From Candidatus Omnitrophota bacterium (GTDB lineage Bacteria; Omnitrophota; Gorgyraeia; Zapsychrales; Zapsychraceae), in contig JBFWOS010000001.1 of NCBI GenBank assembly GCA_050250375.1, forward strand, positions 407,090-471,089: a DNA stretch of 64,000 nt, given 5' to 3'. The stretch's first letter is position 1; each line of letters begins with the position of its first letter. Of the stretch, positions 33,126-50,251 are shown piece after piece. The position numbers were made by a program, and so were the translations under genes. The notes under the pieces are model-generated. The model made no database searches, was not told the DNA's origin, and was given only the letters and a program-made list of their open reading frames with translations.

Positions 33126-33560
33126 TTAATTTTCTTTAATCCCAAAACCAATTTCCGCTTCAGATACCAGTTTATCACGGACGAAGGCTTTGGTTTTCAA
33201 GAAACCTGCCTTGGGAAGGAGTTTTATACCCGTTACTTCAATCCTAAGCTGGTCCCCGGGTACGACCGGAGCAATAAACTTAGAAGTAACTTTGGCTAAA
33301 TAATAGATCAAATCTTTACCCTGCATATTTTTGCTGTAATAAAAATAAATACATCCAGCCTGGGCCATGGCTTCAATAATCAATACACCCGGCATCACTT
33401 TTTCTTCAGGAAAATGTCCGACAAAATAATTTTCATTGATGGATACGTTCTTGATGGCCACGAGTTTTTCATTAGGAACCAATTCGGTCACTTTATCAAT
33501 CATTAAAAATGGAAAACGATGGGGGATGATCTTTTGTATTTCTCGTATGTCTAACTGCAT
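33126..33560 (-). CDS. fabZ: 3-hydroxyacyl-ACP dehydratase FabZ-like
   Basis: HRFPFLMIDKV…GHFPEEKVMPGVLIIEAMAQ hot-dog fold signature. Confidence 0.85.
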   Translation of the reverse strand: MQLDIREIQKIIPHRFPFLMIDKVTELVPNEKLVAIKNVSINENYFVGHFPEEKVMPGVLIIEAMAQAGCIYFYYSKNMQGKDLIYYLAKVTSKFIAPVVPGDQLRIEVTGIKLLPKAGFLKTKAFVRDKLVSEAEIGFGIKEN

Positions 33561-33588: not shown

Positions 33589-34341
33589 TTACCTCATGGC
33601 TAAACCACCGTCAACGACAATTACTTGTCCCGTTATATATCCGGCGGCTTCACTCAAAAGAAAGGCAACGCAATTTGAAACATCTTCCGGCGTTCCAATT
33701 CGCCCTAGTGGTATTTCTTGTTTAAATTGCACCATCTGTTCTTCTGTAAACTTGGATAAAATCTCTGTCTGGATAAAACCCGGGGCGATTGCATTGACCT
33801 TCACATTAAACCGCGCAACTTCCTTGGCCAATGCTTTAGTAAATGCGTTCATTCCCCCCTTGCTTGCAGAATAATTAGTCTGTCCAACCAGTCCAATCAC
33901 ACCGCTGATTGACGAAATATTAATAATATCCCCCTGTTTCTGTTTCATAAATGAAACAATGCAATGCCGGCATACATTAAACATCCCGTTGAGATTGGTA
34001 TCTATAACCTTGTGCCACTGTTCCGGCGCCATCATCATTAAGGCCTTATCGTCAATAACACCGGCATTGTTGACCAGAATGTGAAATTCCCCGAATTCCT
34101 GTTTAATTTCATCAATCCATGTTTTTACGGCACCATAATCCGCGATATTTACAGATTTTTTATGGCAACGGACACCCTTTTCCTCCACGAGATCATAGAG
34201 CGTTTGTGCCTCGGACTCACTGGTTAAATAATTAAAGGCGATGTTGCAACCCAAAGAAGCTAATTTAATAACAATATCCCGGCCGATTCCCCGGCTCGCA
34301 CCGGTAACGATGGCCACTTTTCCATTTAAATTATGATTCAT
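33589..34341 (-). CDS. fabG: 3-oxoacyl-ACP reductase (SDR) FabG-like
   Basis: TGASRGIG…NNAG…S…YSASK catalytic tetrad. Confidence 0.8.
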   Translation of the reverse strand: MNHNLNGKVAIVTGASRGIGRDIVIKLASLGCNIAFNYLTSESEAQTLYDLVEEKGVRCHKKSVNIADYGAVKTWIDEIKQEFGEFHILVNNAGVIDDKALMMMAPEQWHKVIDTNLNGMFNVCRHCIVSFMKQKQGDIINISSISGVIGLVGQTNYSASKGGMNAFTKALAKEVARFNVKVNAIAPGFIQTEILSKFTEEQMVQFKQEIPLGRIGTPEDVSNCVAFLLSEAAGYITGQVIVVDGGLAMR

Positions 34342-35575
34342 ATTTTCCTAAGACCATACAGGCATGGTTTCCGCTGGGGCCAAATGAATTGATTAAAATA
34401 TTTCTTACTTTTGACTCCCGCGATTGGTTTGGCACATAATCAAGGTCACATTCCGGATCGATCTCTTGAAAATTTGTGGTAGGAGGAATAAACTCATTCA
34501 CCAGAGAACCCACACAAGCCGCTGTAGCAAATGCCCCTCCGGCGCTGTATGTCTCCCCGACCATGGATTTTATTGAACTAACCGGGATATGCATACTCCT
34601 TTGACCAAAAACCTCTTTTATTGCTTTTGTTTCAATTTGATCTGCCGATAAGGTAGAATTGGCATTCGCGCATATGTAATCAATATCGTGGATTCCGATT
34701 TTTGCATCATTCAAGGCATCCTTCATTGCCTCAATCATTCCGACTCCACGCGGGTTAAATTTATTGAGACGGTACGGATCAAAATAATAACCGAAGCCGA
34801 GAATTTCAGCCATGATCACCGCATTCCGCTCGAGGGCATGATCAAGTTCTTCAAAAGCTAACAAACAGGCCCCCTCACCAAACGTTATCCCGTTTCTACG
34901 GCGGTCAAACGGACAACTGATATACCGGCTCCCCTCTACGGAACCCGATAAATACTGCAAGGCGTGAAACCCGAGAAAAGTCGGTTCACATAATTCCTCA
35001 ACACTTCCGGTATAAACCATTTTAACCCTGCCCATCTTAATAAAATCGCAGGCGTAACTCATGGCATCAAGGCTGGCCGTGAATCCGGTAGAAATAGTTG
35101 TATTAAATCCCTGAATATTATTCCAAATCGAAACCTGGCTTGCCGGTGAATTAATTACCGTGTTCGGAAAATGGGCCGGATTTGTATACCTGGGACCTTC
35201 CGTTAACGTCACTTTATCAAAGTCACTGATACTTTTCAAACTTCCAAACGTCGTTCCAACGGAGACACCAACATCATCCGTATTTTGTTCGGTGATCACG
35301 TATCGACTGTCATCAATGCAAAGCCTGGCCGCAGAACATAATAATTTTGTACTGCGATCCAATGAACGCAGCCCTTTCTGCCCCATATAAATTGTTGGAT
35401 CAAAATCACTGATTTCTCCGGCGATATTGACCCTAAACCGCTCATCAACGTCAAAGAGCGTGATCGGTTTAAAACCGTCCTGACCGTTTCTAAGAGCTTG
35501 CCAAAATTCTTCCTTGCCTTTGCCATTACAAGCTAAAACACCTACCCCGGTGATCACTACGCGCTTATCCATCAT
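34331..35575 (-). CDS. Beta-ketoacyl-ACP synthase II (FabF) homolog lacking the Cys-His-His catalytic triad (predicted non-condensing)
   Basis: Full-length KAS fold (VVITGVGVL…, SSIKSM…, NSFGPSGNHA). When aligned to E. coli FabF, C163 becomes F (ISTGFTAS), H303 becomes N (YICANANST) and H340 becomes E (SMVGETYS). Confidence 0.75.
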   Translation of the reverse strand: MMDKRVVITGVGVLACNGKGKEEFWQALRNGQDGFKPITLFDVDERFRVNIAGEISDFDPTIYMGQKGLRSLDRSTKLLCSAARLCIDDSRYVITEQNTDDVGVSVGTTFGSLKSISDFDKVTLTEGPRYTNPAHFPNTVINSPASQVSIWNNIQGFNTTISTGFTASLDAMSYACDFIKMGRVKMVYTGSVEELCEPTFLGFHALQYLSGSVEGSRYISCPFDRRRNGITFGEGACLLAFEELDHALERNAVIMAEILGFGYYFDPYRLNKFNPRGVGMIEAMKDALNDAKIGIHDIDYICANANSTLSADQIETKAIKEVFGQRSMHIPVSSIKSMVGETYSAGGAFATAACVGSLVNEFIPPTTNFQEIDPECDLDYVPNQSRESKVRNILINSFGPSGNHACMVLGKYES

Positions 35576-36165
35576 CTTCTATCCGCCATCTGCCTTTCTA
35601 TATACCTAGCCAGAATATCTACCTCGATATTAACCGACATTTGTTCTTTGAGTAATCCCAAATTGGTTTCTTTTTCCGTCAAAGGAATGATATAAACTGA
35701 AAAATATTCCTTAGTGACCGCCCCAACTGTCAAACTCACTCCATTTATACAAATTGACCCTTTAGGAGCAATAAATCTTGCAATTAAATGATCCAGGGAG
35801 AATCGCAACTCAAGATAATTCTCTTTTGCAATTCTTTTTATCAACATCGAAACTTGATCCACATGCCCTGTAACAATATGCCCATCCAAACGTCCGCTGG
35901 ATTTTACAGCCCTTTCCAGGTTAACTTTGTCACCGCTCTTGAGCTTGCCCAATGTCGTTTTTTCCAATGTCTCAGCCATGGCATCAAATATCAGATTCTT
36001 TTCTTCGACGGCCGTTACAGTCAAACAAACCCCGTTAACACAAATGCTGCTCCCCAATCTAACGCCTTTACTAATTTTAGTCGCTTGAACGACTAAAATA
36101 GCCAAGTTTTCTTTGCTGACAAGCCTCTTAACGGTCCCTATCTCTTCAACGATTCCTGTGAACAT
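35572..36165 (-). CDS. ribE: Riboflavin synthase alpha subunit
   Basis: MFTGIVEEIGTV… duplicated lumazine-binding repeats. Confidence 0.85.
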   Translation of the reverse strand: MFTGIVEEIGTVKRLVSKENLAILVVQATKISKGVRLGSSICVNGVCLTVTAVEEKNLIFDAMAETLEKTTLGKLKSGDKVNLERAVKSSGRLDGHIVTGHVDQVSMLIKRIAKENYLELRFSLDHLIARFIAPKGSICINGVSLTVGAVTKEYFSVYIIPLTEKETNLGLLKEQMSVNIEVDILARYIERQMADRR

Positions 36166-36823
36166 CGGCCACCACCAAAATGTCTTTATTAAATTTTCTT
36201 ATTTTCCGAATCTTCAATATACAGGTTTTCTTAATACTTTTAATCAACAAACCATCAATGGAATTTTTTGCCATGGAATCACCCACTATTTTGGGCGCAA
36301 TATAAATATGCATTTGATGGATAATTTTTTCTTTAAGAGCAGCGCCAATGATGGTAGCTCCCCCTTCAATAAGCAACTTCTTTATACCTTTATCTAAAAG
36401 CATCCTGGATAAATAATTCAAATCTACTCTTTTATTCTTTGCCGGACATTGAATCACCTGAACCTTCAAATCTTCTAATTTTCTTTTCTTACTTAACGAC
36501 GCATTTCTGGTTGTTGCGACAATCCATCTATGACCTGACTTGAACAGCCTTGCTTTTGTCGATATACGTAATGAAGAATCAACAACAATCTTCTGAAGAT
36601 TTTTATTTCTTATTCCTGTCAATCGCGGATCGTCTTTGATAACCGTATCAATTCCTACCAGGATCGCGTCAAAACGGTCCCGTTGCTTCCGGGCATATTT
36701 TCTGGTGTCACCGGAAGTAATCCATTTGGACTGGCCGGTTCTGGTTGCAATCTTACCATCAATCGTCTGGGCACATTTCGCAACGACGAATAAAGATTCC
36801 GACCTATTCTTACCCATTTGCAA
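36146..36823 (-). CDS. ribD: RibD-type 5-amino-6-(5-phosphoribosylamino)uracil reductase domain protein (stand-alone, no deaminase domain)
   Basis: AQTIDGKIA…SKWITSG… and LLIEGGATI RibD_C pattern. Confidence 0.75.
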   Translation of the reverse strand: MQMGKNRSESLFVVAKCAQTIDGKIATRTGQSKWITSGDTRKYARKQRDRFDAILVGIDTVIKDDPRLTGIRNKNLQKIVVDSSLRISTKARLFKSGHRWIVATTRNASLSKKRKLEDLKVQVIQCPAKNKRVDLNYLSRMLLDKGIKKLLIEGGATIIGAALKEKIIHQMHIYIAPKIVGDSMAKNSIDGLLIKSIKKTCILKIRKIRKFNKDILVVADVHRNR

Positions 36824-37634
36824 CTGCCTTTAGTTTTTCTACTATTTCATAGGGAATTGTAACTTTCCCCAAATATGTATTCTTCTTTGCATCACCATGC
36901 GCATCCGAACCGCCTGTTGCGACCAAATTGTACTTGTCTGCCAAATTCGCATAAAACTCGATTGTAGCCGGCATACAATTCGGATAATAAACCTCTATCC
37001 CTTTTAGACCCGCGTCAACCAGACCTGGGATAAGTTCATCGACCATAGTAAACATTGGATGGGCCAATACCGGCACACCGCCATATTTTAGGATCAATTC
37101 TATCCCTTCGGTCGGAGTTAATTTCAACTTGGGGGCGTAAGCAGGTTTATCATCCGCCAGATACCGGTCAAACGCAGCCTTGATGTTCGGGACAATCCCG
37201 TGTTTTACCATCACCGCGGCCAAATGCGGCCGGCCAACAGCGTTGCTTTCTGTCAAGGCGCAGACTTCATCAAAATCAATGTTTCCAACCCCAAGGTCAT
37301 TTAACTTACTAATCATTAATTTCATTCTTTCAAGCCGGGAATACTGCAACCGATTTAAACTTTCAATCAGATTAGAATTCTTATAAGAAATCAGATACCC
37401 TAAAATGTGAACATCTTTATTATTGGCTTGAGTAGAAAGTTCGATTCCAGGGATTACTTCTATGCCGTATTGTGCGGCCGCCACCATAGTCGGCGCAATC
37501 CCTTCAACTATATCGTGATCGGTTATTGCTATACACTGGATTCCTAACTGGTATGCTTTTTCTACGACTTCCTGGGGAGAAGATGTACTATCGGAATAGT
37601 GGGTATGAATGTGCAGATCGGCTATTTTAGCCAT
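36810..37634 (-). CDS. PHP-domain phosphoesterase (TrpH/YciV-like)
   Basis: ADLHIHTHYSD…AITDHD…GGSDAHG PHP metal-binding motifs. Confidence 0.8.
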   Translation of the reverse strand: MAKIADLHIHTHYSDSTSSPQEVVEKAYQLGIQCIAITDHDIVEGIAPTMVAAAQYGIEVIPGIELSTQANNKDVHILGYLISYKNSNLIESLNRLQYSRLERMKLMISKLNDLGVGNIDFDEVCALTESNAVGRPHLAAVMVKHGIVPNIKAAFDRYLADDKPAYAPKLKLTPTEGIELILKYGGVPVLAHPMFTMVDELIPGLVDAGLKGIEVYYPNCMPATIEFYANLADKYNLVATGGSDAHGDAKKNTYLGKVTIPYEIVEKLKAVANG

Positions 37635-37635
37635 A

Positions 37636-38058
37636 TCAAGATTTTTTTTCGGCCATTTCAGTTTTATGAATTTTGTCTAGAATTCCATTGACGAACTTGC
37701 TGGACTCCACGTCTCCATACTTTTTGGCTAACTCGACCGCTTCGTTGATTGAAACCTTCGGAGGAATATCTTCGGCATATAACAGTTCATAGACACCCAT
37801 GCGTAAAATATTTCGATCAATAATAGCCATCCGCTTCAATTGCCAATTGGTCGCGTATTTGGAAATCTTCTCATCAATGATTGTAATATTACTTTCCACC
37901 CCTAATACGATTCGGTCTGAAAAGTTATGTACGGTCTGATCAAACTTTTCTTTCTGGACCCAATAATTCTCGTTCGCTGCCGTTATGGTCCTTTTTGTTA
38001 CCTCGGCCTGATAAAGTATTTTTAAAGACTCTTCTCGCCCTTTACTTCTCTTTCGCAT
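37636..38058 (-). CDS. nusB: Transcription antitermination factor NusB
   Basis: NusB fold signature (…[12 protein letters not shown]…), embedded in the rib operon as in many bacteria. Confidence 0.85.
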
Positions 38059-38093
38059 TTAATTTTTCCTCGTCGGTTATGTAATCCTGACAA

Positions 38094-38558
38094 TTAAATT
38101 TCTGGCAGTAAATTGACCATTTCAACCGCTGTTTCCGCGGCATCCCGCCCCTTGTTGTGACCTTTTGGTTGGGAACGCTTATCAATCAATTTAACTGATT
38201 TAGCTGCTAAAATCTCAAATATTACCGGCTTCTGCGACTGTAGCGATACCTGCATAATGCCACTTGCCACATTATCTGTAACTAATCGATAATGCTCCGT
38301 TTGCCCCTCAATGACGGCCCCCAAACATATAACCGCATTGATATCTTTCTTAGTAGCATATTTAAGGGCGATTAAGGGGATTTCAAATGCCCCCGGAACC
38401 CAAGCAACCTTAATATCCTTTTGAGAAACACCCAGCTTAGACAGTTGATCCAAACAACCGTTCAGTAAACGCCGGGTAATAGTTTCATTAAAACGTGAAA
38501 CCACAATCGCTATTCTGATTCCCTTACCAGAATTTTTCTTTACGGTCTGCATTTTCAT
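38094..38558 (-). CDS. ribH: 6,7-dimethyl-8-ribityllumazine synthase
   Basis: IAIVVSRFNE…WVPGAFEIP…ICLGAVI. Confidence 0.9.
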   Translation of the reverse strand: MKMQTVKKNSGKGIRIAIVVSRFNETITRRLLNGCLDQLSKLGVSQKDIKVAWVPGAFEIPLIALKYATKKDINAVICLGAVIEGQTEHYRLVTDNVASGIMQVSLQSQKPVIFEILAAKSVKLIDKRSQPKGHNKGRDAAETAVEMVNLLPEI

Positions 38559-38621
38559 CGAAAAAACTATAGAATCCTCTTTAAAAAATTTTATCCGAAC
38601 TTCAAATGCCGATTATCTAAA

Positions 38622-39770
38622 TCAAACTTTCGTCTTTTGCGACGAAAACACAGATAAGGGTACACGTTCCGTGACAGACAATCCAAAACCTTCTAAACCA
38701 ACTATCTTTCGGGGATTATTCGTAAGTAATCGTATATTCTTGACACCCAAATCAACGAGTATTTGTGCCCCTAACCCATAATGCCTTAAATCCGGCAATA
38801 GGGAAAATTCTTCCTGAGAATCCTGCTTTACAGCATTATTCTTTAAGCCGTTCAATTTATCAAAATTCAATCGAGGCATTGACTGTCTCATATAAATGAC
38901 AACGCCAGAACCATTTTCATTAATCATTTTAAAAGCGGTGGCTAAAGCACCCGAACTTTTTAACCCCTTGGCCTGAAACACATCGTTAAGTATATTCTCG
39001 GCATGAACACGGACAAGAGTCGGTTCATTAGTCTGGATATCCCCATAAACCAAAGCAATATGCTCCAGATCATCAACTTGGGAATGGTATTTAATAACCT
39101 TAAAATCACCATATTCTGTCGATAGGACGTTTTCATCACCACGTTCAACCAACTTCTGATATTTCGTTAAATATTCAATTAGACTGTCGATGGTACAAAT
39201 CTTAATTGAATGTTTTTTTGAAAACTCGATCAGGTCGTTGGTTCGGGCCATTGTTCCGTCTTCATTCATTATCTCACAGATAACACCAGCCGGATATAAA
39301 CCAGCCAAACGAGTCAAATCCACAGATGCCTCTGTATGTCCAGCCCGGACTAATACCCCGCCTCTCTGGGCACGAAGAGGAAAAAGGTGGCCAGGAGTTA
39401 TAATATCCGTTGGTTTTGTTTTTTGTTCAATGAGAAGTTTCACCGTGTATGCCCTGTCAGCAGCAGAAATGCCGGTCGTTATTCCTTTGGCCGCATCAAC
39501 TGAAATGGCCCATCCGGTATCGCATTTTTGATGCTTTCGGCTATGATCAATTTTCATGGGGTGAAGATCCAATTCATCCAAACGGGTCGCTTCCATCGGA
39601 ACGCAGACTAAACCCCGCGCCTCTTTCGCCATAAAATTAATAATTTCAGGCGTAATGTATTCAGCGGCGCATAATAAATCGCCTTCATTTTCACGACCTT
39701 CATCATCCATAACGATGATCATTTTTCCAGTTTTTAGATCTTCAAGAACTTCCCCGATAGTGTTAAACAT
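38622..39770 (-). CDS. ribBA: Bifunctional DHBP synthase / GTP cyclohydrolase II
   Basis: N-terminal DHBP synthase (DDEGRENEGDL) and C-terminal GCH II domains. Confidence 0.9.
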   Translation of the reverse strand: MFNTIGEVLEDLKTGKMIIVMDDEGRENEGDLLCAAEYITPEIINFMAKEARGLVCVPMEATRLDELDLHPMKIDHSRKHQKCDTGWAISVDAAKGITTGISAADRAYTVKLLIEQKTKPTDIITPGHLFPLRAQRGGVLVRAGHTEASVDLTRLAGLYPAGVICEIMNEDGTMARTNDLIEFSKKHSIKICTIDSLIEYLTKYQKLVERGDENVLSTEYGDFKVIKYHSQVDDLEHIALVYGDIQTNEPTLVRVHAENILNDVFQAKGLKSSGALATAFKMINENGSGVVIYMRQSMPRLNFDKLNGLKNNAVKQDSQEEFSLLPDLRHYGLGAQILVDLGVKNIRLLTNNPRKIVGLEGFGLSVTERVPLSVFSSQKTKV

Positions 39771-39802
39771 GACTTTCCCTCTCTGATGGTTATCCTATGA
39801 TA

Positions 39803-39830
39803 TAAAAAAATCCCACTCAACCGTTGGGAT
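39803..39830 (-). terminator. Terminator-like hairpin plus U-tract in the ribBA leader, about 35 nt upstream of the start codon. It may be an attenuator.
   Basis: Minus strand reads AATCCCAACGGTTGAGTGGGATTTTTTTAT. Confidence 0.3.
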
Positions 39831-39935
39831 TAGTATTATATTATTACTATAAATAATATAGTCCTTTTTTGGTTTGTACTATATTCGAAATGATTAAACT
39901 TGTCAAGGAATTTGTCCTGCCCTATAATACCTTTT

Positions 39936-40417: not shown

Positions 40418-42769
40418 TTGAAAAATCCTCTTGATTATAACAAACTACCGCACCCAAAAGAAAAACACCTATTTCTTTTAATAGTAATCCTCGAATTTCT
40501 TCAACTAATCTATTGCGTAATGTCTAACCGCCTGGTTGTTCACGACACATTTTTCCGTTTTTATATGCAATATTATTATCTCAACACCTATGTTAACTAT
40601 TTGGAATTTCCTTTTTGGATTCCTTACTTGACACATGGCACACTCGCGACTCCATGGCAAGGACTTGTAGGAATCCATGGGATCTTTAACAACACACTTT
40701 TTCTAACCGGAAATATTCTGAAATATGTTAATTTTTTACCCATATTCTATATGGGCGTTTTCTTTGACCGGTTAGTCCTGTTACTCGGAACATGGTATTT
40801 TTCAAAACGTTTATACAACTCCCCCCTAGTGTCATTCTTTGTTACTACCAGCATTTTAATTTCAAGCGTTTGGGCAAGTCAAATTCATCTCAATTTTCTT
40901 TTTTACTATGCAATCCCTCTCATCATTTATTTATTCCATCGTTTTCTCGAAACACAAAAATGGCGATATTGTTTTTTAGCGCTGAATCTTTTCAGCCTTC
41001 AATGTGTTGATAAACTGTTCTATTTCTTACCGGTTGTCAGTTTGACCATCTCATTGTATTTCTTTTTTTATGCCCTTCTTAATTTCCAGGAAGTGTCCAG
41101 CCACATAAAAAAAATTAAATTTAATTTGAATGGAATATTCTGTCTAGCTCTAGTTCTAACATCCGCGCTTGTCGTCTTTTATTTGGTTAAAATAGGCATG
41201 GCTGGCGATATCGTTAAAAATGTTTTTCAAAGAAATGAAGACGGTAGTGTTAATTTGAATATATTCCTCACTTACTCCCAAGATAATAGTCTAACGAAAT
41301 GGGCAGAACTTCTGCTTGGACTATCGATTAAGAACGACACCACTCTTTATTGCGGACTATTAATCCCACTAATGGCCTTATTTGCCCTCTCATTTAATTT
41401 AAACCGGAAAAGCCTCCCTTTGATTCTAACCGGTTTCACTCTTTTCTTATTTAGTCTTGGCTCAATCGTTTCCATATTCTTTTATCATAGCTGGCCGACC
41501 ATGAAATTTTATAGACACATATTCCAAATCGTTTCAATCGTTCGACTTTTTTTGTGTTTATTTTCCGGCTTCGGGTTCTTGAAATTATTTGAGTTTATCT
41601 TTTCGCAAACGCGCTCCCGTCTAGAATGTATATGGCTAGCAACTACCTCTCTTGGCGTTCTAATCGCTGGTTTGATTTTCTTCAATCAGGCAGGAAACAG
41701 CACCTACATTGTTGAATTCATCAAGCCCTTAACTTACGACACAGATTTAAACCTACTTGCTGGTAATAGCAGCCATTACTATTCATATTTTCGATTCTTA
41801 GGGATTAAGTATATTCTTTGTTCTTTACTGGTATCTTCGTTGTTATTCTTGAACAGGCCATCGAGAAAATGGGTTGTTTTTCTTTTAATTATATTTCATT
41901 TATTAGATGGATACATCTATACTCTAAAAGAATTTAATAACAGAACTGTAGCTATATCCCCCAAACAACTTTCACTTACCCAATTTCAACCAATAATTTA
42001 TAATAATAGGCGTTCTCAAGATGAGTTTTCATTATTTAACAGTCGTTTTGATCTGTTAACACCGGAGTTACTGTCCAAAAGCATGCTCAGCTGGAATATC
42101 CATGCGCTCATGTTTAATGACCCCTTTTATTCACAGCTAAGAACAGACCATTGGTTAAAACCGTATGATCAGTATACTACTATTGACCCGCTTGGATTAA
42201 AGAATGCAACAAAGAAAAAGTCTGGAATAACGGAAAATAAAATCCAATTCTTCCGGCAAGCATACTGCTCGGATAGCACCAAGACATCAAGAGTCATGGC
42301 CCTCCCAGAAAACGATGGCAACAATTTATTTCTCGAGTGTTTACCCGACGAACCTCCAACAAATCTTCTCAGCAAAGATTGGGAGGTACAATCAGCATTG
42401 AGATCAAATGACAGACTTTCTCTTTCCCCCATTATAAATTTTTTCAGTTCTAACAGAATTGAAATTGAAGTTTATAATCCGAGTAAACAACCCATCTGGC
42501 TCTTTTATAGTGATGTTTGGCACCCGTTTTGGAAAGTACAAGTCAATCATAAGGATTCACCTCTTTACAAAGCGGATATAGCATACAAAGCTGTTTTACT
42601 TGTTCCTGGGACTAATAAAGTCCTTTTCTATTTCTCTGCATCCACTTGGAGACTTCTAACCTTTTTAATTATTCTTAATTCTTTTTTTTGGTTCTGTTAT
42701 ATAATTTATTTATTAAAGTCTACAATTTTCCAAAATGACTCTGAAAAGGCAAAAAAATTACATCTGTGA
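40418..42769 (+). CDS. Large polytopic membrane protein, YfhO-like (GT-C-type) candidate glycosyltransferase
   Basis: 783 aa. About 13 TM helices fill the first ~480 aa, followed by a ~250-aa soluble domain ending …WHPFWKVQVNHKDSPLYKADIAYKAVLLVPGTNKVLFYF, then a final TM helix. This is the YfhO-family architecture. Confidence 0.45.
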   Translation: MKNPLDYNKLPHPKEKHLFLLIVILEFLQLIYCVMSNRLVVHDTFFRFYMQYYYLNTYVNYLEFPFWIPYLTHGTLATPWQGLVGIHGIFNNTLFLTGNILKYVNFLPIFYMGVFFDRLVLLLGTWYFSKRLYNSPLVSFFVTTSILISSVWASQIHLNFLFYYAIPLIIYLFHRFLETQKWRYCFLALNLFSLQCVDKLFYFLPVVSLTISLYFFFYALLNFQEVSSHIKKIKFNLNGIFCLALVLTSALVVFYLVKIGMAGDIVKNVFQRNEDGSVNLNIFLTYSQDNSLTKWAELLLGLSIKNDTTLYCGLLIPLMALFALSFNLNRKSLPLILTGFTLFLFSLGSIVSIFFYHSWPTMKFYRHIFQIVSIVRLFLCLFSGFGFLKLFEFIFSQTRSRLECIWLATTSLGVLIAGLIFFNQAGNSTYIVEFIKPLTYDTDLNLLAGNSSHYYSYFRFLGIKYILCSLLVSSLLFLNRPSRKWVVFLLIIFHLLDGYIYTLKEFNNRTVAISPKQLSLTQFQPIIYNNRRSQDEFSLFNSRFDLLTPELLSKSMLSWNIHALMFNDPFYSQLRTDHWLKPYDQYTTIDPLGLKNATKKKSGITENKIQFFRQAYCSDSTKTSRVMALPENDGNNLFLECLPDEPPTNLLSKDWEVQSALRSNDRLSLSPIINFFSSNRIEIEVYNPSKQPIWLFYSDVWHPFWKVQVNHKDSPLYKADIAYKAVLLVPGTNKVLFYFSASTWRLLTFLIILNSFFWFCYIIYLLKSTIFQNDSEKAKKLHL

Positions 42770-43482
42770 ATAATATGAATTTCCTTCAAATCACTAAACG
42801 CATCTTACTGTTGAGCGGAATAATATTATTTTCTATTACAGTCGTTACATTGTACTTTAGCATGACCATAAATGTTCCCCCGATCCTACTTATCAAAACC
42901 TTTGTAAATCAAGGTTATGTTTTGCACCATAACCTGGTACGCCCCTGCTCTGCATTTACTTTAAATTTTAATATTTATATATATTTTGTTTTGTTCTTTT
43001 CTACAGCTATTGCATTCATTTTCCAAAAAACTATTGTCAGAAATCTTGAGTTCACCTTTCAACAATTTATTTTTTGTATAATAAGCGTCTTATTCACTTT
43101 AGTATCTATGAACCAACTGTTTAACTTTCAATATTATTTTAAGTTCGAACAACAATTATTCGGAAACAAATCTCTTAGGGAAAAAAATTCTAATCTTTAT
43201 GAGGGAATTGTTTACAGATACTCCATCTTTTGTCATAATTTTATAAATGGCGCCCAAAATGCTCAACTAATTACTGATCTGGATCTGAACCGAGAACCCG
43301 GCATGCTGGATCACCGGATGCTGGCGTATTACCTATATCCGATCGACATCCGTAATGTCCGAAGAAAAGCCCCCGACTACCTGCTATTCTTTATGAAAAG
43401 AAACGCCAGCGATCATGTCCCTGATAACTTTAAAATAATCGCTGTGATAAATAAGGATAATTTGATCGCAAAAAGAAAATAA
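42766..43482 (+). CDS. Cassette 1 small subunit: 3-TM protein with the conserved C-terminal 'DPGML-HR…YYLYPIDIRN' domain
   Basis: Paralogous to 45786..46586 and 48130..48870. The track start is a GTG; the first ATG is at 42775. It is translationally coupled to the following gene. Confidence 0.5.
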   Translation: MNNMNFLQITKRILLLSGIILFSITVVTLYFSMTINVPPILLIKTFVNQGYVLHHNLVRPCSAFTLNFNIYIYFVLFFSTAIAFIFQKTIVRNLEFTFQQFIFCIISVLFTLVSMNQLFNFQYYFKFEQQLFGNKSLREKNSNLYEGIVYRYSIFCHNFINGAQNAQLITDLDLNREPGMLDHRMLAYYLYPIDIRNVRRKAPDYLLFFMKRNASDHVPDNFKIIAVINKDNLIAKRK

Positions 43483-43485
43483 AGC

Positions 43486-44871
43486 ATGGAAACGTTCATC
43501 CTAATACTGAATACATTAATCTTCCCAACGGTCTTCGGCTATTACCTCATCTGTTTATTGGATAACAACCAACCCTTCCCCTTCTCAGTCAAAATTGCTA
43601 TTGGATACGGCCTTGGTTTAGGTTGCCTTACCCAGTGGATGTTAATTTTATGCACCCTAAATATCCCTTTATCTTTTACAGTAGTTATTTCTCCCTTATC
43701 AATTCTCCTAATGTTTGTCTTCATAAAAATTAAATGCAAAAAAAGAATCTTGGGACCAACGGACGAACAATCTCAGGGGCTAAAATTAAATTTCTTATCA
43801 ATTCTACTCACAACCTATATACTTTTGTGTCTTGTATTTATTTTCTGGAGGACTTTCAACATACCTTTGTCTACGTGGGATGCATTTTCGTATAATGGCT
43901 TTGTCGCAAAAGCCATTTATTTTGAAAAATCATTATATTACTTGCCTAATATGCCTCATTACGAATACCCCCTGCATGCCCCTTTTATGCAAGTCTGGGC
44001 GTCCTTGTGTCTGGGGGAGTGGAACGATCTCTTTATCAATATTTTCTTCCCCTTTTATCTTCTCTTTTTCTTGGTTTTCTTATTTTATTTCTTAATTCAA
44101 TTTACTAGCCGTACATGGGCACTTCTCGGCCTAGCGCTTATTGTTTCTTCAAACTTATTGGTTCAACACGCTAGTATCGCGTATCGAGACATCCCGTTAA
44201 TGTACTACGTTAATATTTCGTTGTTGCTTTTAATTCTCGCCAATAAAGACGACGGATCGCGGAAAAAATTATTTTTATCCGGATTAATGGCGGGTATCGC
44301 TACTTCTGTCAAATTGGACGCTACAGGATATATCGTGGTGTTAACCTTTATCTTGTTATTCATGCTCTTTCTGAATAACTCAACCGCCACAAAACAAAAG
44401 ATTATTAATTTCCTTCTTTTTACTGTTCCTTGTTATTCGATCTTACTTTTCTTCAATATATATAAAATTCTAGTTGTGGAACCCAAAGCGCCTCAAATAA
44501 CTGGAGAAAAATTGAGCTTTGATCTTTATTCAGTCAAACTCAAATTCGGTGTTGAAGCACTAACACGATTTAATACCGTTGTAGCGAGAATCATGGACAA
44601 CTTATTCTTAAGCGGGAATTGGGGAATTGTTTGGATAATCTTCTTTTTTAGCTTGGTCCATTTACAAAAGGCAGAAAAATCGCTTGAAATAAGAATACTG
44701 TTAGTGGCGTTAATTGCCTTTTTCGGTTTACAAATAGTCGGGTATACGTTTACCCAATATTATTATTGGATTGCCGACACACATACGTCATTATCCCGGC
44801 ATTTACTCAGCCAGTTTCCTATTGTTGTTGCTCTAATTATACTTTTAAATGGACAAAAAATACAACCATAA
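43486..44871 (+). CDS. Cassette 1 large subunit: ~12-TM polytopic membrane protein (GT-C-like candidate)
   Basis: Conserved motifs shared with its two paralogs: FGYYLI, WDAFSY…AKAIYFEKS…YP, HASIAYRDIPLMYY, LSGNWGIVW. Confidence 0.55.
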   Translation: METFILILNTLIFPTVFGYYLICLLDNNQPFPFSVKIAIGYGLGLGCLTQWMLILCTLNIPLSFTVVISPLSILLMFVFIKIKCKKRILGPTDEQSQGLKLNFLSILLTTYILLCLVFIFWRTFNIPLSTWDAFSYNGFVAKAIYFEKSLYYLPNMPHYEYPLHAPFMQVWASLCLGEWNDLFINIFFPFYLLFFLVFLFYFLIQFTSRTWALLGLALIVSSNLLVQHASIAYRDIPLMYYVNISLLLLILANKDDGSRKKLFLSGLMAGIATSVKLDATGYIVVLTFILLFMLFLNNSTATKQKIINFLLFTVPCYSILLFFNIYKILVVEPKAPQITGEKLSFDLYSVKLKFGVEALTRFNTVVARIMDNLFLSGNWGIVWIIFFFSLVHLQKAEKSLEIRILLVALIAFFGLQIVGYTFTQYYYWIADTHTSLSRHLLSQFPIVVALIILLNGQKIQP

Positions 44872-45785: not shown

Positions 45786-46586
45786 ATGCGCTGTACTATA
45801 TTGGAAATGATAACCCTTGTCAATAAAATTGTGCTGGCCTATAATGATTTAAATCGTATTAAAAACAAAGAAAGCATGAACAGATCCATTCTAAAATATT
45901 ATATTGCCCTCAATATACTTACTTTTTATCTTTTATTGAGCGGCCTCGCATTATATATGAAACTTCCAGAAAAGCATCTATTTGGTTTTCTGACAGAAAC
46001 TTCGTTCAAGCCGCACCAAAATATAATGCTCTATGGACAATTAAATCATATCCCCTTTCCAATATTCTTGTATGTTGCCATATTTGTCTTAACCATCATC
46101 TTATGGGTTTTTAATCGAGTGATCCATTCTGCGAATCCGAACAACTATCCTCTCGACTGCGTTCGGACTTTTTTCCTAATAAGCACCCTGTCAGTATTCA
46201 CGTTTCTATTAATAATACAAACAATATGTATATCTAAGGTTTGGGGCAAGTCTTTCGAACTTTTCGCAAATAAGACGGAAGTTGAAAAATTTCATGGATC
46301 AACCGTACAACAAAGCTTAATTATGGCTGAATTCTGTAAAAAATTCGCTCCTGGCACACAAAAAGCCAAATTCGAGACTGACCTGGATATCACGGAAGAT
46401 CCGGGCATGTTAATTCACAGGAGCTTTGCCTTCTACCTCTATCCCATTGATATCCGAAATATTTACCGCGGCGAGCCAAATTTATGGATTGCATTTCAAA
46501 AAAAAGAGGCAATTCGACATGTCCCCCGCGGATACAAAGTCCTCGGCATATTGGATGACCAAAATATAATAGCCATGAAAGAATAA
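45786..46586 (+). CDS. Cassette 2 small subunit (paralog of 42766..43482)
   Basis: C-terminal DLDITEDPGMLIHRSFAFYLYPIDIRN. The stop overlaps the next start (TAATG). An alternative start at M31 is possible. Confidence 0.5.
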   Translation: MRCTILEMITLVNKIVLAYNDLNRIKNKESMNRSILKYYIALNILTFYLLLSGLALYMKLPEKHLFGFLTETSFKPHQNIMLYGQLNHIPFPIFLYVAIFVLTIILWVFNRVIHSANPNNYPLDCVRTFFLISTLSVFTFLLIIQTICISKVWGKSFELFANKTEVEKFHGSTVQQSLIMAEFCKKFAPGTQKAKFETDLDITEDPGMLIHRSFAFYLYPIDIRNIYRGEPNLWIAFQKKEAIRHVPRGYKVLGILDDQNIIAMKE

Positions 46587-47962
46587 TGGATTTGCTATCG
46601 GTTACATTGTATTTATTAATCCCAACCACGTTGGGGTATTTCCTCGTAACCCTGCTCAGTTGGAAAACCCCCCTTCCATTCTTCGTAAAATTTATGCTTG
46701 GATATGGCATTGGAGCTGGCCTTTTAACCCACTGGGCGGTTATTCTCAGTTATTTCAAAATACCTTTTTGTGCAGTGTCAATCAATGTTCCGATCTTAGC
46801 CGTTACTTTACTTCTCTTTTGCTTAATTGCCAGAATAAAAAACAAGCCAAACTTAAAATTACTCAAATACAAACTAAAATTCGATACTATAAATTCCATA
46901 TTTCTCTTATTCAGTATTTACATTATATGTTTTATTTTTTGGTCTGGCACAAATATACCTATATCCGAATGGGATACCTATTCCACATTGGGACTAAAAG
47001 CAAAAACCATTTATTACGACAAATCCTTGAATTATTTACCGTATATCGGAAAATTTAATTACCCCATTCACTTAGAATTAATGCTTGCCTGGCTTTCATC
47101 TTGCCTTGGATACTGGGACAACACTGTCATAAAATTCGTTTTCCCAATGTCCTGCCTGGCCTATCTGGTCATACAGTATTATTTCTTAAGGCACTTTACT
47201 TCTGCTCGTTGGGCCTTATTTAGCATCGTATTACTTTTGTCTTCAGCATTTGTCGTTTATCATTCTTATATTTCATACCGGGACATTACCATGATGTTTT
47301 ACAACTGCACAGCCATTCTCTTAATTATTCTTTGGTATAGTCAAAAGCAGAATATGTATCTTGTCTTGGGAGCATTATTCTCAGGAATGACATCATTTAT
47401 AAAATTGGAGGGCTTCGGATATCTTGGCATTCACAATCTTCTGGTTTGGATGCTTATGTATTACATAAATTTTATTGACACGAAAAAAAAGACTAAATTA
47501 ACCATCCTGTTTGGAACCATCAGCTTCGGGATGTATGCACTTTTCATGTTTTATCGAAAACTTTACATCCTTCCTTTTGTACCACCGGAATTGCTTAATT
47601 CCGAACATTTTAACCTTTCACACCTCACTTTAAACCTCTCTGCCGACACTTTGTTCAGGATAAAAATCGTTATGAGACGCTACATCACGAACTTCTACTT
47701 AACCGGTAATTGGTCACTTGTATGGTTGTTTTTTCTTATCAGCGTTCTCCAAATATCAAACAAAAGAATATCTATGGAAATTAAAGCGTTTTTCTTTGTT
47801 TTAGGATTATTCTTTGTGGTATATCTTTTTTCTTATATCTTTACACAACATTACTTGTGGGTTGCATTTAAAGCCGATGTATTATCCCGATCTTTGCTCC
47901 ATATTTTCCCACTCATCACCATTTTAATTCCTTTATTAAATGTCCCGGAAGAGGTGAATTAG
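46586..47962 (+). CDS. Cassette 2 large subunit (paralog of 43486..44871)
   Basis: LGYFLV, WDTYST…AKTIYYDKS…YP, HSYISYRDITMMFY, LTGNWSLVW. Confidence 0.55.
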   Translation: MDLLSVTLYLLIPTTLGYFLVTLLSWKTPLPFFVKFMLGYGIGAGLLTHWAVILSYFKIPFCAVSINVPILAVTLLLFCLIARIKNKPNLKLLKYKLKFDTINSIFLLFSIYIICFIFWSGTNIPISEWDTYSTLGLKAKTIYYDKSLNYLPYIGKFNYPIHLELMLAWLSSCLGYWDNTVIKFVFPMSCLAYLVIQYYFLRHFTSARWALFSIVLLLSSAFVVYHSYISYRDITMMFYNCTAILLIILWYSQKQNMYLVLGALFSGMTSFIKLEGFGYLGIHNLLVWMLMYYINFIDTKKKTKLTILFGTISFGMYALFMFYRKLYILPFVPPELLNSEHFNLSHLTLNLSADTLFRIKIVMRRYITNFYLTGNWSLVWLFFLISVLQISNKRISMEIKAFFFVLGLFFVVYLFSYIFTQHYLWVAFKADVLSRSLLHIFPLITILIPLLNVPEEVN

Positions 47963-48129: not shown

Positions 48130-48870
48130 ATGTTCAAAATAGAAAAAAAAGATATCCTACTCACTTGCGCAGCATTCTCACTCTTTCTACTGCCAATTAT
48201 TTGCATGATGTCTTTCGCACTCGATATTCCTATTTCGACCGCAGTAACATTGATTCAGGCCAAACTATACAGGCCACATTTCAACATTTTTGAAGTCTAC
48301 CAAATTGGCGACGTTCATCCATTAAAAGCCCTATATATCGTATTACTTCTAACTGCACTCATTCTCATACTTTTCTACAGGATATCTCTTCCTAACAAAC
48401 TTTCAAAATATGCCCCACAACTTATATTTCTTACATATCTTCTGGGAATTCTAACAGTTGCAACCTTAAACTTTGTCATGCGAATAAAATATTATAAACA
48501 TGACCTGAAACTTTATCATGGAAAAACCTTAGATGAAAAAAACTTTCTTTTAAACCATGAGCCTTATCTTTTTGTTGAAAAGGTCCGGAATGTACTATCC
48601 GGTCGTCATAGTGGAGAATTCATCACAACCGAAAATCTTCTAGAGGATCCCCACATGACAACACACCGGATACTGTCTTTTTACCTCTATCCCATTATTT
48701 CATTACGTCTAGACAACAATACCCCAAAAGACATATTTATCTACTATCATACTGATGATTCTCGACTAAGGATACCTAACGATCAGAAAATACTGACCAC
48801 TTCCAATGACCTTAGTCTTACATTAACAATCAAAAATAAGGATTCATCCATACGTGATATTAATTTCTAA
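48130..48870 (+). CDS. Cassette 3 small subunit (more diverged paralog)
   Basis: C-terminal LEDPHMTTHRILSFYLYPI. It overlaps the next gene by 17 nt. Confidence 0.45.
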   Translation: MFKIEKKDILLTCAAFSLFLLPIICMMSFALDIPISTAVTLIQAKLYRPHFNIFEVYQIGDVHPLKALYIVLLLTALILILFYRISLPNKLSKYAPQLIFLTYLLGILTVATLNFVMRIKYYKHDLKLYHGKTLDEKNFLLNHEPYLFVEKVRNVLSGRHSGEFITTENLLEDPHMTTHRILSFYLYPIISLRLDNNTPKDIFIYYHTDDSRLRIPNDQKILTTSNDLSLTLTIKNKDSSIRDINF

Positions 48871-50251
48871 TATTCTGATTAGTTTGCTTATACCCCTTTG
48901 CTTTGGGTATTTAATCTTACTTAAATTATGTAAGTTTAGATTGCCATTGCCTCTTGAACTATCCATTGGATTTGGAACTGGATTTGGACTGTTATCCATT
49001 TGGATGTTGTGCTTAGATATTCTTAATCTTCCGTTCAACCGCACGAACATTAGCGCACCAATATTGATCTTATCTTGTGTTCTTGCAATAAATGTAATGA
49101 AAAGCAAGAAAAACAAAGAAAAACCTCTCCTGTTTAACCAAGAAACTCCGATTACCAATCAATTATCTGATTTTTTTCAAATTACGATTATGGGCATTCT
49201 AATTACATATATCCTATTGAATATTTTCTATGTATATTGGAGAGCGTTGACGTTTCCTGTATACTGCTGGGATGAAATCTCAACTATTGCGTTTAAGGCC
49301 AAAGTTTTCTTCCACGAAAAATCTATCCCCGAATTGAACTTACTTCCCCATCAATCATATCCGCTTTTAACTCCTCTAGTCGAGTCTTGGACAGCTTTTA
49401 ACTTAGGCTATTGGAATGACAGTTTAATTAAGATAATTTTTCCTTTAATTTTCTCAGCGTACTTATGCACTCATTATTATTTCCTTTGTCTCAATACGAA
49501 TCGACGGTGGGCTATTTGGGGGGTAGCATTATTGCTCTCAAGCAACTTCTTTTTATTTCACGCAACAATCGCCTATCGAGATTTCATTCTCATGTATTAT
49601 ACGTGTTCAGCGATTATCTTGTTGTTGTTCTGGCGGCAAACTCGTTGCAATTCATTTCTTTTCCTATCGTCGCTATTCTCAGGATTTGCAACATTTACAA
49701 AACTTGAAGGAACAGCCTACATGTTAATCTTTCTGATTATTTTTCTAATAATAGAAGTTAAAAATCAAACGATCAAGGCAACCAGAAGAATTAAAAACGC
49801 ACTTATTTTCACAATTCCAAGTTTATCCTTAGCATCCTTATTTCATTTATATAAAATATTCCATAATGCCGAAAAAGATGGTCTCGGTCACATAGACAAA
49901 ACTCATTTTGAAGTTTCTTTTGATAAAGCCTCACTGACACCCCAAATCCTCAGCAGCTTTTCTGAAAATCTATTCCTTTCAGGCAATTGGAACCTGCTAT
50001 GGGGCGCTTTACTTATCACTCTTCTACTGTCCTTAAGAAGGCCAAAAACGTTTGAATCTAATATACTATTAACCAGTTTATTTTTATTTTTTGGGCTGCA
50101 TACCTGTGTCGCCGCCTTCTCTTCAAATTTCATCTGGATTGCTGGGGAATTAAATACCACCACGTTATCTAGACTAATCCTGCACTTCTTTCCGTTGGCA
50201 GTTTTGGCGATTATTCTAATCAATTTTTCTTTATTGAAAGACAGTGATTAG
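48854..50251 (+). CDS. Cassette 3 large subunit (paralog of 43486..44871)
   Basis: FGYLIL, WDEIST…AKVFFHEKS…YP, HATIAYRDFILMYY, LSGNWNLLW. Confidence 0.55.
   Translation: MILISNILISLLIPLCFGYLILLKLCKFRLPLPLELSIGFGTGFGLLSIWMLCLDILNLPFNRTNISAPILILSCVLAINVMKSKKNKEKPLLFNQETPITNQLSDFFQITIMGILITYILLNIFYVYWRALTFPVYCWDEISTIAFKAKVFFHEKSIPELNLLPHQSYPLLTPLVESWTAFNLGYWNDSLIKIIFPLIFSAYLCTHYYFLCLNTNRRWAIWGVALLLSSNFFLFHATIAYRDFILMYYTCSAIILLLFWRQTRCNSFLFLSSLFSGFATFTKLEGTAYMLIFLIIFLIIEVKNQTIKATRRIKNALIFTIPSLSLASLFHLYKIFHNAEKDGLGHIDKTHFEVSFDKASLTPQILSSFSENLFLSGNWNLLWGALLITLLLSLRRPKTFESNILLTSLFLFFGLHTCVAAFSSNFIWIAGELNTTTLSRLILHFFPLAVLAIILINFSLLKDSD

Follow-up and report, generated by a model that had tools for sequence, protein, structure and literature searches.

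The 64-kb stretch of an Omnitrophota contig analysed here (the window, 64,000 nucleotides) carries on its minus strand, at 34331-35575, a gene for a FabF-like protein without a catalytic triad, which we name KS*. We consider it probable that KS* is the silent, chain-length factor (CLF)-like subunit of a heterodimeric elongating ketosynthase (KS) acting with the neighbouring FabG and FabZ, and that the catalytic subunit, probably an amxFabF2-like KS, is encoded elsewhere together with an acyl carrier protein (ACP). In this proposal we infer that the two subunits physically form a heterodimer, which KS is the partner, and what the product is. The kind of protein is already known, but only since a 2026 preprint and only from anammox bacteria; KS* adds another phylum.

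In this proposal KS* has retained the FabF fold together with the dimer interface and the basic patch for ACP docking, and alone it would neither form an acyl-enzyme nor decarboxylate malonyl-ACP. It would pair with an active Cys-His-His KS, most likely amxFabF2-like, and its helix-loop-helix motif (FPNTV) would form part of the acyl tunnel of the partner and so help to determine chain length and the position of ACP. In each round of elongation the two steps that follow would fall to the co-translated FabG and FabZ, and the active KS and ACP genes of this genome should lie outside the window.

An intact FabF-fold protein without the catalytic triad

The KS* open reading frame (ORF) comprises 414 codons with zero internal stops, and the Pfam ketoacyl-synt N- and C-terminal domains (PF00109, PF02801) cover the protein end to end. 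In NCBIfam it aligns over positions 1-406 of the 407 positions of the FabF model TIGR03150, scoring 354.1 bits against a cut-off of 493.75, and it falls under the cut-off in all remaining KS equivalog models. The AlphaFold model (predicted local distance difference test, pLDDT, 92.3; predicted template modelling score, pTM, 0.93) matches B. subtilis FabF (4LS5) with a template modelling (TM) score of 0.96-0.97 and a root-mean-square deviation of 1.7 A; a first reading of this DNA made from the letters alone (the sequence-only reading) had rightly described the thiolase fold as retained. Key positions were placed by HMMER alignments to solved FabFs and by MAFFT alignments to E. coli FabF, whose residues are cited in mature numbering, and their conservation was assessed in 120 homologues of at least 62% identity, out of more than 120 such clusters (hereafter the orthologues). 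Where organism labels are shown for homologues at this level, all read Omnitrophota or Omnitrophica. The gene and its main positions are as follows.

34331 to 35575, minus strand: KS*, 414-aa FabF-fold protein without the catalytic triad, amxFabFmut-like and CLF-like
35138 to 35170, minus strand: FPNTVINSPAS, residues 136-146, helix-loop-helix / dimer-interface motif
35081 to 35083, minus strand: Phe165 (codon TTC), at the nucleophile Cys163 of E. coli FabF; Phe in 120/120 orthologues
34664 to 34666, minus strand: Asn304 (codon AAT), at His303; Asn in 116/120 orthologues
34658 to 34660, minus strand: Asn306, in place of Thr305; Asn in 120/120 orthologues
34568 to 34570, minus strand: Lys336, equivalent to Lys335 and kept; Lys in 120/120 orthologues
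34553 to 34555, minus strand: Glu341 (codon GAG), at His340; Glu in 120/120 orthologues
34376 to 34378, minus strand: Pro400 (codon CCC), replacing the gating Phe400; loop GPSG instead of GFGG

The sequence-only reading had reported that all three catalytic residues are substituted (C→F, H→N, H→E). This is correct, since the HMMER and MAFFT alignments agree and there is no alternative Cys/His register: a careful alignment for a Cys/His/His triad at shifted positions found none, and the nearest Cys, C302, pairs with E. coli Asn301. The lysine of the KSM motif is intact as well, being Lys336. The same reading was mistaken in calling a C-terminal NSFGFGG intact, as the actual sequence is NSFGPSGN, in which Phe400 has become Pro and Gly401 is lost; position 400 is Pro in 109 orthologues and Val in 11. 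In FabF the GFGG loop is the gating/oxyanion loop (PMC7138838). The pattern of KSQ-type loading KSs, with Gln for Cys and both His kept, is not seen, as KS* has Phe, Asn and Glu at these positions. Asp311, Glu314 and Asp265 are retained in all 120 orthologues. The basic residues K65, R68 and R127, which dock ACP on E. coli FabF (PMC7138838), are kept in 118-120 of them.

Relationship to an anammox ketosynthase heterodimer

The best sequence match to KS* in the PDB is chain C of 9s5h (420 bits, E 8e-125, about 50% identity over residues 4-413), while the active KSs in that database reach at most 273 bits. The triad positions of chain C read V/N/E. Its partner in the crystal, chain B, is an active Cys-His-His KS and shares 95% identity with a protein from a Planctomycetia metagenome-assembled genome (MAG) and 87-91% with proteins of Jettenia, Loosdrechtia and Kuenenia. 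Judged by these identities, the 9s5h pair is presumably the amxFabF2/amxFabFmut heterodimer of Brocadia fulgida described in the preprint (10.64898/2026.05.19.726425). According to that work, neither subunit is active alone, and the co-expressed pair decarboxylates malonyl-ACP and yields acetoacetyl-ACP; ACP touches both subunits, the amxFabFmut residues F135, T138 and V139 line the acyl tunnel of the partner, and F135 and V139 tune chain-length preference (10.64898/2026.05.19.726425). The heterodimer is termed there the first chain-length factor in fatty-acid synthesis, its gene cluster is termed unique to ladderane producers, and B. subtilis FabF is named as the closest structural homologue of amxFabFmut (10.64898/2026.05.19.726425).

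The three tunnel residues correspond to F136, T139 and V140 of KS*. They lie in the FPNTVINSPAS stretch (136-146), which is the most conserved part of the whole protein among the orthologues; F and V are present in 120/120 of these. In the AlphaFold monomer the only low-confidence block, residues 131-140 (35156-35185, pLDDT 58), is the same helix-loop-helix loop, and it overlaps the N-terminal half (FPNTV) of that stretch. The corresponding loop of amxFabFmut is disordered in a homodimer crystal and ordered in the heterodimer (10.64898/2026.05.19.726425).

The trio KS*-fabG-fabZ as part of a five-gene module

KS* is embedded in a run of riboflavin and fatty-acid genes, which is laid out as follows.

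33126 to 33560, minus strand: fabZ-type 3-hydroxyacyl-ACP dehydratase, 28 nt past fabG
33589 to 34341, minus strand: fabG-type 3-ketoacyl-ACP reductase (Pfam/NCBIfam), translationally coupled to KS* by an 11-nt overlap
35572 to 36165, minus strand: ribE, riboflavin synthase, whose stop overlaps the KS* start (ATGA, 4 nt)
36146 to 39770, minus strand: ribD (reductase domain only), PHP-domain protein, nusB, ribH and ribBA, upstream in the same-strand run
39878 to 39906, minus strand: best sigma-70-like promoter match (11/12), in the ribBA-cinA intergenic region; a consensus match only

The overlaps of KS* with ribE upstream and fabG downstream, followed by fabZ, had been described correctly beforehand. 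Omnitrophota contigs of 1.17 Mb, 3.36 Mb and 0.52 Mb, in which KS* is 64-68% identical, have kept the gene order ribBA-ribH-nusB-PHP-ribD-ribE-KS*-fabG-fabZ. JGI/ENA metagenome contigs were scanned with a KS* alignment, and 80 loci were sorted by ORF and hidden Markov model (HMM) analysis. In 42 of them (type A) ribE lies directly upstream of KS*, mostly followed downstream by a ketoreductase (KR) and a dehydratase (DH); among the 66 metagenome loci with upstream sequence long enough to judge, 41 have ribE in this position. In a further 22 (type B) an ACP and/or an active KS of the CHHKF type stands beside KS*, the usual order being KS*-KR-ACP-DH-KS. The remaining 16 loci, mostly on short contigs, show no ribE and no detected ACP or active KS. 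The active KSs of type B are 53-59% identical to amxFabF2, their dead neighbours carry the FNEKP signature of the window protein at 53-60% identity to it, and their KR and DH are 50-56% identical to the FabG and FabZ of the window. Given the shared gene order and identities of 50-60% with KS*-KR-ACP-DH-KS, the trio of the window represents KS*, KR and DH of a five-gene module whose ACP and catalytic KS it lacks. The five-gene modules (L145-L170, L007, L011 and L013-L015) thus share with it the FNEKP signature and the order of the common genes; they differ in having their own ACP and active amxFabF2-like KS, in adding, in some cases, a phytoene-desaturase-like oxidase and an NAD-dependent reductase, and in having no link to riboflavin genes.

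Neighbour-joining analysis makes the rib-linked and the FNEKP five-gene clades sisters, and places the two of them among amxFabFmut and further dead KSs with an adjacent partner. Two loci join the arrangements: L104 (ACP-KS*-DH-KS, the last of the CHHKF type) and L110 (fabD-KR-ACP-KS*-DH, two inserted ATPase genes, then a CHHKF KS) encode KS* proteins 68-69% identical to that of the window, and these fall within the rib-linked clade. It is most likely that the genome encodes the missing KS and ACP at another place and does not lack them, because the trio belongs with the five-gene module and two orthologues adjoin an ACP and an active KS. At the three tunnel positions F, T and V occur in 70/70 sequences of the orphan and partner-adjacent clades, and the tunnel-lining and ACP-docking residues are identical in the two groups; nothing in these residues indicates that constraint changed once adjacency was lost.

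The pairing is not confined to Omnitrophota. When genomes were scanned for loci around amxFabF2-like KSs, a dead KS of the X-x-E-K type was directly adjacent in nearly all non-actinobacterial cases, and fusions of about 800-870 aa, with an N-terminal active KS (CHHKF) and a C-terminal dead KS that often has Glu at the His340 position, are common (P0122, P0126, P0129, P0137 and others). Such proteins are natural Rosetta-stone fusions for the pairing. The suggestion of the sequence-only reading that KS* is a non-condensing, CLF-like partner of a KS thus gains support, the nearest solved protein being an inactive heterodimer subunit and the relatives being almost always beside an active KS. Its remark that a dead KS beside a reductase and a dehydratase is unusual holds insofar as no active KS is local; the set is no stand-alone oddity, being part of the five-gene module.

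Sets resembling 'Cluster I' of anammox bacteria were seen in Omnitrophota, Nitrospirota, Planctomycetia, Acidobacteriota and Zixibacteria (L007 7443-11194, L008 1-5607, L011 6648-12662, L013-L015 and L017-L029). They contain a dead KS, KR, ACP, DH, an amxFabF2-like KS (56-58% identity), a phytoene-desaturase-like amine oxidase and an NAD-dependent reductase. In four unrelated loci a histidine kinase follows the KS cluster (L008 6299-9570, L011 12664-17717, L104 14122-18449 and L110 8237-9892). It is of the 7TM-GAF type in L011 and L104, has GAF and no detected 7TM in L008 and is 7TM-HisKA in L110; a GAF or HD-GYP (HD_5) protein accompanies it in L008, L011 and L104, and response regulators in L008 and L011. 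The recurrence of these kinases in the gene neighbourhoods suggests a conserved regulatory link.

Conservation and selection

KS* is under purifying selection. In a comparison with the L092 orthologue (86% protein identity) its rate of nonsynonymous substitution (dN) is 0.088, against 0.105 for fabG, 0.148 for ribH, 0.165 for ligA and 0.236 for ribE; dN alone is comparable here, because synonymous divergence (dS) is saturated even at this identity. Only about 25% of all KS* columns are at least 98% invariant among the orthologues. An NCBI MAG with the label Candidatus Omnitrophota (on a 1,225,656-bp contig) and an independent Logan assembly both encode the identical protein. In the wider dead-KS family, sampled from 1.8 billion representatives, the Cys position is taken by F, Y, I, M, V, E, Q, A, L, T, G or N and position 303 by N, S, A, G, C or T, while Glu340 and Lys335 are nearly constant and form a Glu/Lys pair that is the signature of the family. 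Because the former positions vary while the latter hardly do, a filled, structurally stabilised dead pocket fits this residue pattern better than a new active site would.

Search for the partner and alternative explanations

Several observations weigh against a partner encoded elsewhere. Searches by tblastn with KS* and E. coli ACP found no other KS and no ACP gene in the 64-kb window, Pfam analysis of essentially all its large ORFs found no other KS and no ACP, FabD or FabH, and no fab, KS or ACP genes lie within about 10 kb past either window edge, as had been anticipated from the sequence for the active KS. Fourteen fully flanked rib-linked loci likewise have no active KS or ACP within 9-10 kb of KS*. 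In homology searches, which do not amount to a whole-genome inventory, neither an amxFabF2-like nor another active elongating KS was found in any rib-linked genome, and no contig was shared between the matches to KS* and those to amxFabF2-like active KSs; the 1.17-Mb contig Ga0265297_10000002 gave a single match to the KS* alignment, its rib-linked KS*. Judged from sequence alone, the net charge of the interface segments shows no clear heterodimer signature, although even amxFabFmut is not positive by such simple counting. The evidence for the heterodimer is that of a preprint, obtained with a protein that shares only about 50% identity with KS*, and Scalindua brodae amxFabFmut crystallises alone as a homodimer (10.64898/2026.05.19.726425), which makes a KS* homodimer physically possible.

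Some further leads were followed and set aside. A search with amxFabF2 (9s5h_B) returned solely anammox proteins among the best 120 matches. The single contig (4976 bp) that seemed to be shared between KS* and active-KS matches was an unrelated contig, and three Omnitrophota-labelled KSs from a search with P0261 (amxFabF2-like) were each clustered with their own dead KS. ACP-KS 'orphan' pairs of Omnitrophota (L033, L041 and L044) were rejected as partners, belonging to a different system with a short degenerate KS-like gene. That system consists of a degenerate KS-like protein of about 290-303 aa, an ACP and an active KS of 387-390 aa (L033 5091-7371, L041 8808-11146 and L044 8791-11164); in L033 and L041 it lies among radical-SAM genes (sugar clusters), in L033 with aminotransferase and glycosyltransferase genes as well. 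Literature on lipid synthesis in Omnitrophota yielded nothing relevant.

On these grounds it may be asked whether KS* acts as a homodimer without any active KS, binding ACP or acyl-ACP in small-genome, possibly host-dependent bacteria, where it could pass intermediates on to FabG and FabZ, bind acyl-ACP away or sense it, or work on acyl chains that come from a host. The conserved ACP-docking residues and the amxFabFmut homodimers seen in crystals would suit such roles, as would the lack of a partner within about 84 kb and the 42 of 80 loci in which the operon has lost its ACP and active KS genes and KS*-KR-DH are still tightly coupled. Against this stand the partner-tunnel residues, which are invariant and identical in orphan and partner-adjacent clades, the position of L104 and L110, with their adjacent ACP and active KS, inside the orphan clade, and the need of FabG and FabZ for 3-ketoacyl-ACP, which only a condensing enzyme supplies; we regard a partner-free role as unlikely, though it is the strongest of the competing explanations. 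A new catalytic activity, in which Asn304, Asn306, Glu341, Lys336 and the Asp/Glu residues would serve a non-Claisen reaction on an ACP-bound substrate, would account for replacement residues that are invariant (F, N306, E and K each in 120/120) in a protein with so few invariant columns, and for the conservation of Glu at 340 and Lys335 across a very wide family. It is nevertheless a distant prospect, given that the Cys position and position 303 vary across that family as those of a catalytic site would not, that amxFabFmut alone has no detectable activity (10.64898/2026.05.19.726425), that the bulky Phe at 163 and the lost GFGG loop argue for a filled, closed pocket, and that a structural salt bridge would be the simpler explanation of the Glu-Lys pair.

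The possibilities that KS* is a pseudogene in decay, an artefact of sequencing or an active FabF wrongly aligned can practically be dismissed. Two of the three substitutions are single-nucleotide changes (TTC vs TGC, AAT vs CAT), as an artefact might produce; the frame is nonetheless intact and full-length, the substitutions are fixed across the 120 orthologues, dN is below that of neighbouring essential genes, the identical protein recurs in independent assemblies, and the alignment leaves no alternative Cys/His register. The independent assemblies, the orthologues and the low dN exclude the pseudogene that had been named beforehand as one way in which the interpretation could fail. A silent subunit paired with a KS encoded elsewhere therefore remains the reading we prefer. 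A more speculative extension concerns the whole cell: in rib-linked Omnitrophota the KS*/KS system may be the only fatty-acid synthase, self-priming by malonyl-ACP decarboxylation so that FabH would not be needed, or there may be no active KS and host acyl chains may be processed; we hold this joint proposal to be doubtful.

Other features of the locus and window

The claim that ribBA through fabZ form a single minus-strand run stands as to layout, all genes being on one strand with gaps of at most 63 nt; two gene names required revision, 'trpH' being a PHP-domain protein and 'ribD' consisting of RibD_C only. The sigma-70-like match at 39878-39906 marks a possible start of the operon. An Rfam scan of the whole 64 kb gave no family at gathering score, neither a riboswitch nor another RNA, and hence no FMN riboswitch can be recognised in front of ribBA (39771-39899), though riboflavin genes head the operon. 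RibD (36146-36823, minus strand) is a protein of 225 aa with the RibD_C reductase domain alone, and that of the close relative L092 (8759-9430) is likewise short (223 aa), while L002, L004 and L005, from other Omnitrophota, have a full RibD of 364-366 aa with deaminase and reductase; the riboflavin deaminase step is therefore encoded elsewhere or missing in this lineage.

The run belongs to about 31 kb of near-uninterrupted minus-strand genes (8635-39770), extending from ribBA through KS*-fabG-fabZ and including genes annotated as acylphosphatase, ligA, xerC/D-like, CCA/polyA polymerase-like, rbfA, DHH phosphoesterase, truB and ribF. Its gene order is conserved in relatives; ftsA lies at its far end, and MraZ was identified only in the matching locus L001. 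On the plus strand, three tandem paralogous two-gene modules (42766-44871, 45786-47962 and 48130-50251) each encode a protein of about 240-266 aa and one of about 460 aa; the short genes are 24-30% and the long genes 31-36% identical, without a Pfam match, and a 783-aa ORF, also without a Pfam match, precedes the modules. Similar gene pairs adjoin cinA in L005 and L092.

Implications

For KS/CLF pairs the arrangement of KS* is unusual, in that the silent subunit, KR and DH are tied to a riboflavin operon and the catalytic subunit and ACP most likely lie elsewhere. Provided that the catalytic subunit is indeed encoded at a distance, this split is a natural test of whether a silent subunit has to be translated together with its partner. 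Across Omnitrophota a dead FabF of this kind is fixed, and near-complete look-alike clusters are found in Nitrospirota, Acidobacteriota, Planctomycetia and others. As such clusters occur outside ladderane producers, fewer genes can be ladderane-specific. KS/CLF-type fatty-acid synthases are thus widespread, dead/active FabF pairs being common outside ladderane producers, and this wider pattern may matter more than the KS* gene itself.

There is also a consequence for annotation. JGI annotates several KS* homologues as 3-oxoacyl-ACP synthase II, and NCBI names KS* or close homologues beta-ketoacyl synthase or beta-ketoacyl-ACP synthase family protein; with dead subunits annotated as FabF, reconstructions of Omnitrophota metabolism may count a false elongating enzyme. 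Were the KS*/KS system the only fatty-acid synthase of these cells, a whole phylum would build its membrane acyl chains with a CLF-controlled heterodimeric KS, and in that case, or if there were no active KS at all, genome-based calls of 'FabF present' would be wrong for the phylum.

Comparison with known systems

Canonical FabFs (E. coli, and B. subtilis 4LS5) share with KS* the fold and the length, and Lys335, Asp311, Glu314, Asp265 and the basic ACP-docking residues are retained in it; KS* differs from them in lacking the Cys-His-His triad, in having GPSG for GFGG and in scoring below the TIGR03150 cut-off. The CLFs of type II polyketide synthases (KS-beta; ActB, 1TQY_B, and Iga12 of ishigamide biosynthesis) are likewise inactive KS-fold paralogues that have lost the triad, and like them KS* would be expected to form a heterodimer with an active KS and to shape the acyl cavity. 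They are nonetheless more distant, 1TQY_B scoring 144 bits against KS* compared with 230-265 for FabFs and 420 for 9s5h_C. Many members have Gln at the Cys position where KS* has Phe, and their genes lie directly downstream of KS-alpha and are usually coupled to it, while no KS adjoins KS*, which sits with fully reducing partners of the FabG/FabZ type.

The very-long-chain fatty-acid cluster of rhizobia, acpXL-fabZXL-fabF2XL-fabF1XL, offers another parallel, having two FabF paralogues with a dedicated ACP and FabZ in a gene order that resembles anammox Cluster I. The papers found on the AcpXL cluster are silent on whether FabF1XL lacks the triad or belongs to the X-x-E-K family.

The closest known counterpart of KS* is amxFabFmut, presumably chain C of the PDB entries 9s5h and 9s5i. 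The two are about 50% (49.9%) identical over the full length and share the FabF fold, with B. subtilis FabF as the closest canonical structure to both, Asn at His303, Glu at His340, the retained Lys335 and a hydrophobic residue replacing the nucleophile; the FPNTV tunnel-lining motif is identical, and K65 and R68 are kept. In contrast to KS*, which has Phe at the Cys position, Pro at the Phe400 position and the Arg of R127, amxFabFmut has Val or Thr, Arg and Asn at these places. KS* is not beside an active KS, an ACP, a phytoene-desaturase-like or a radical-SAM gene, being set with FabG and FabZ in a riboflavin/nusB operon, and its host, a member of the Omnitrophota, is no ladderane producer.

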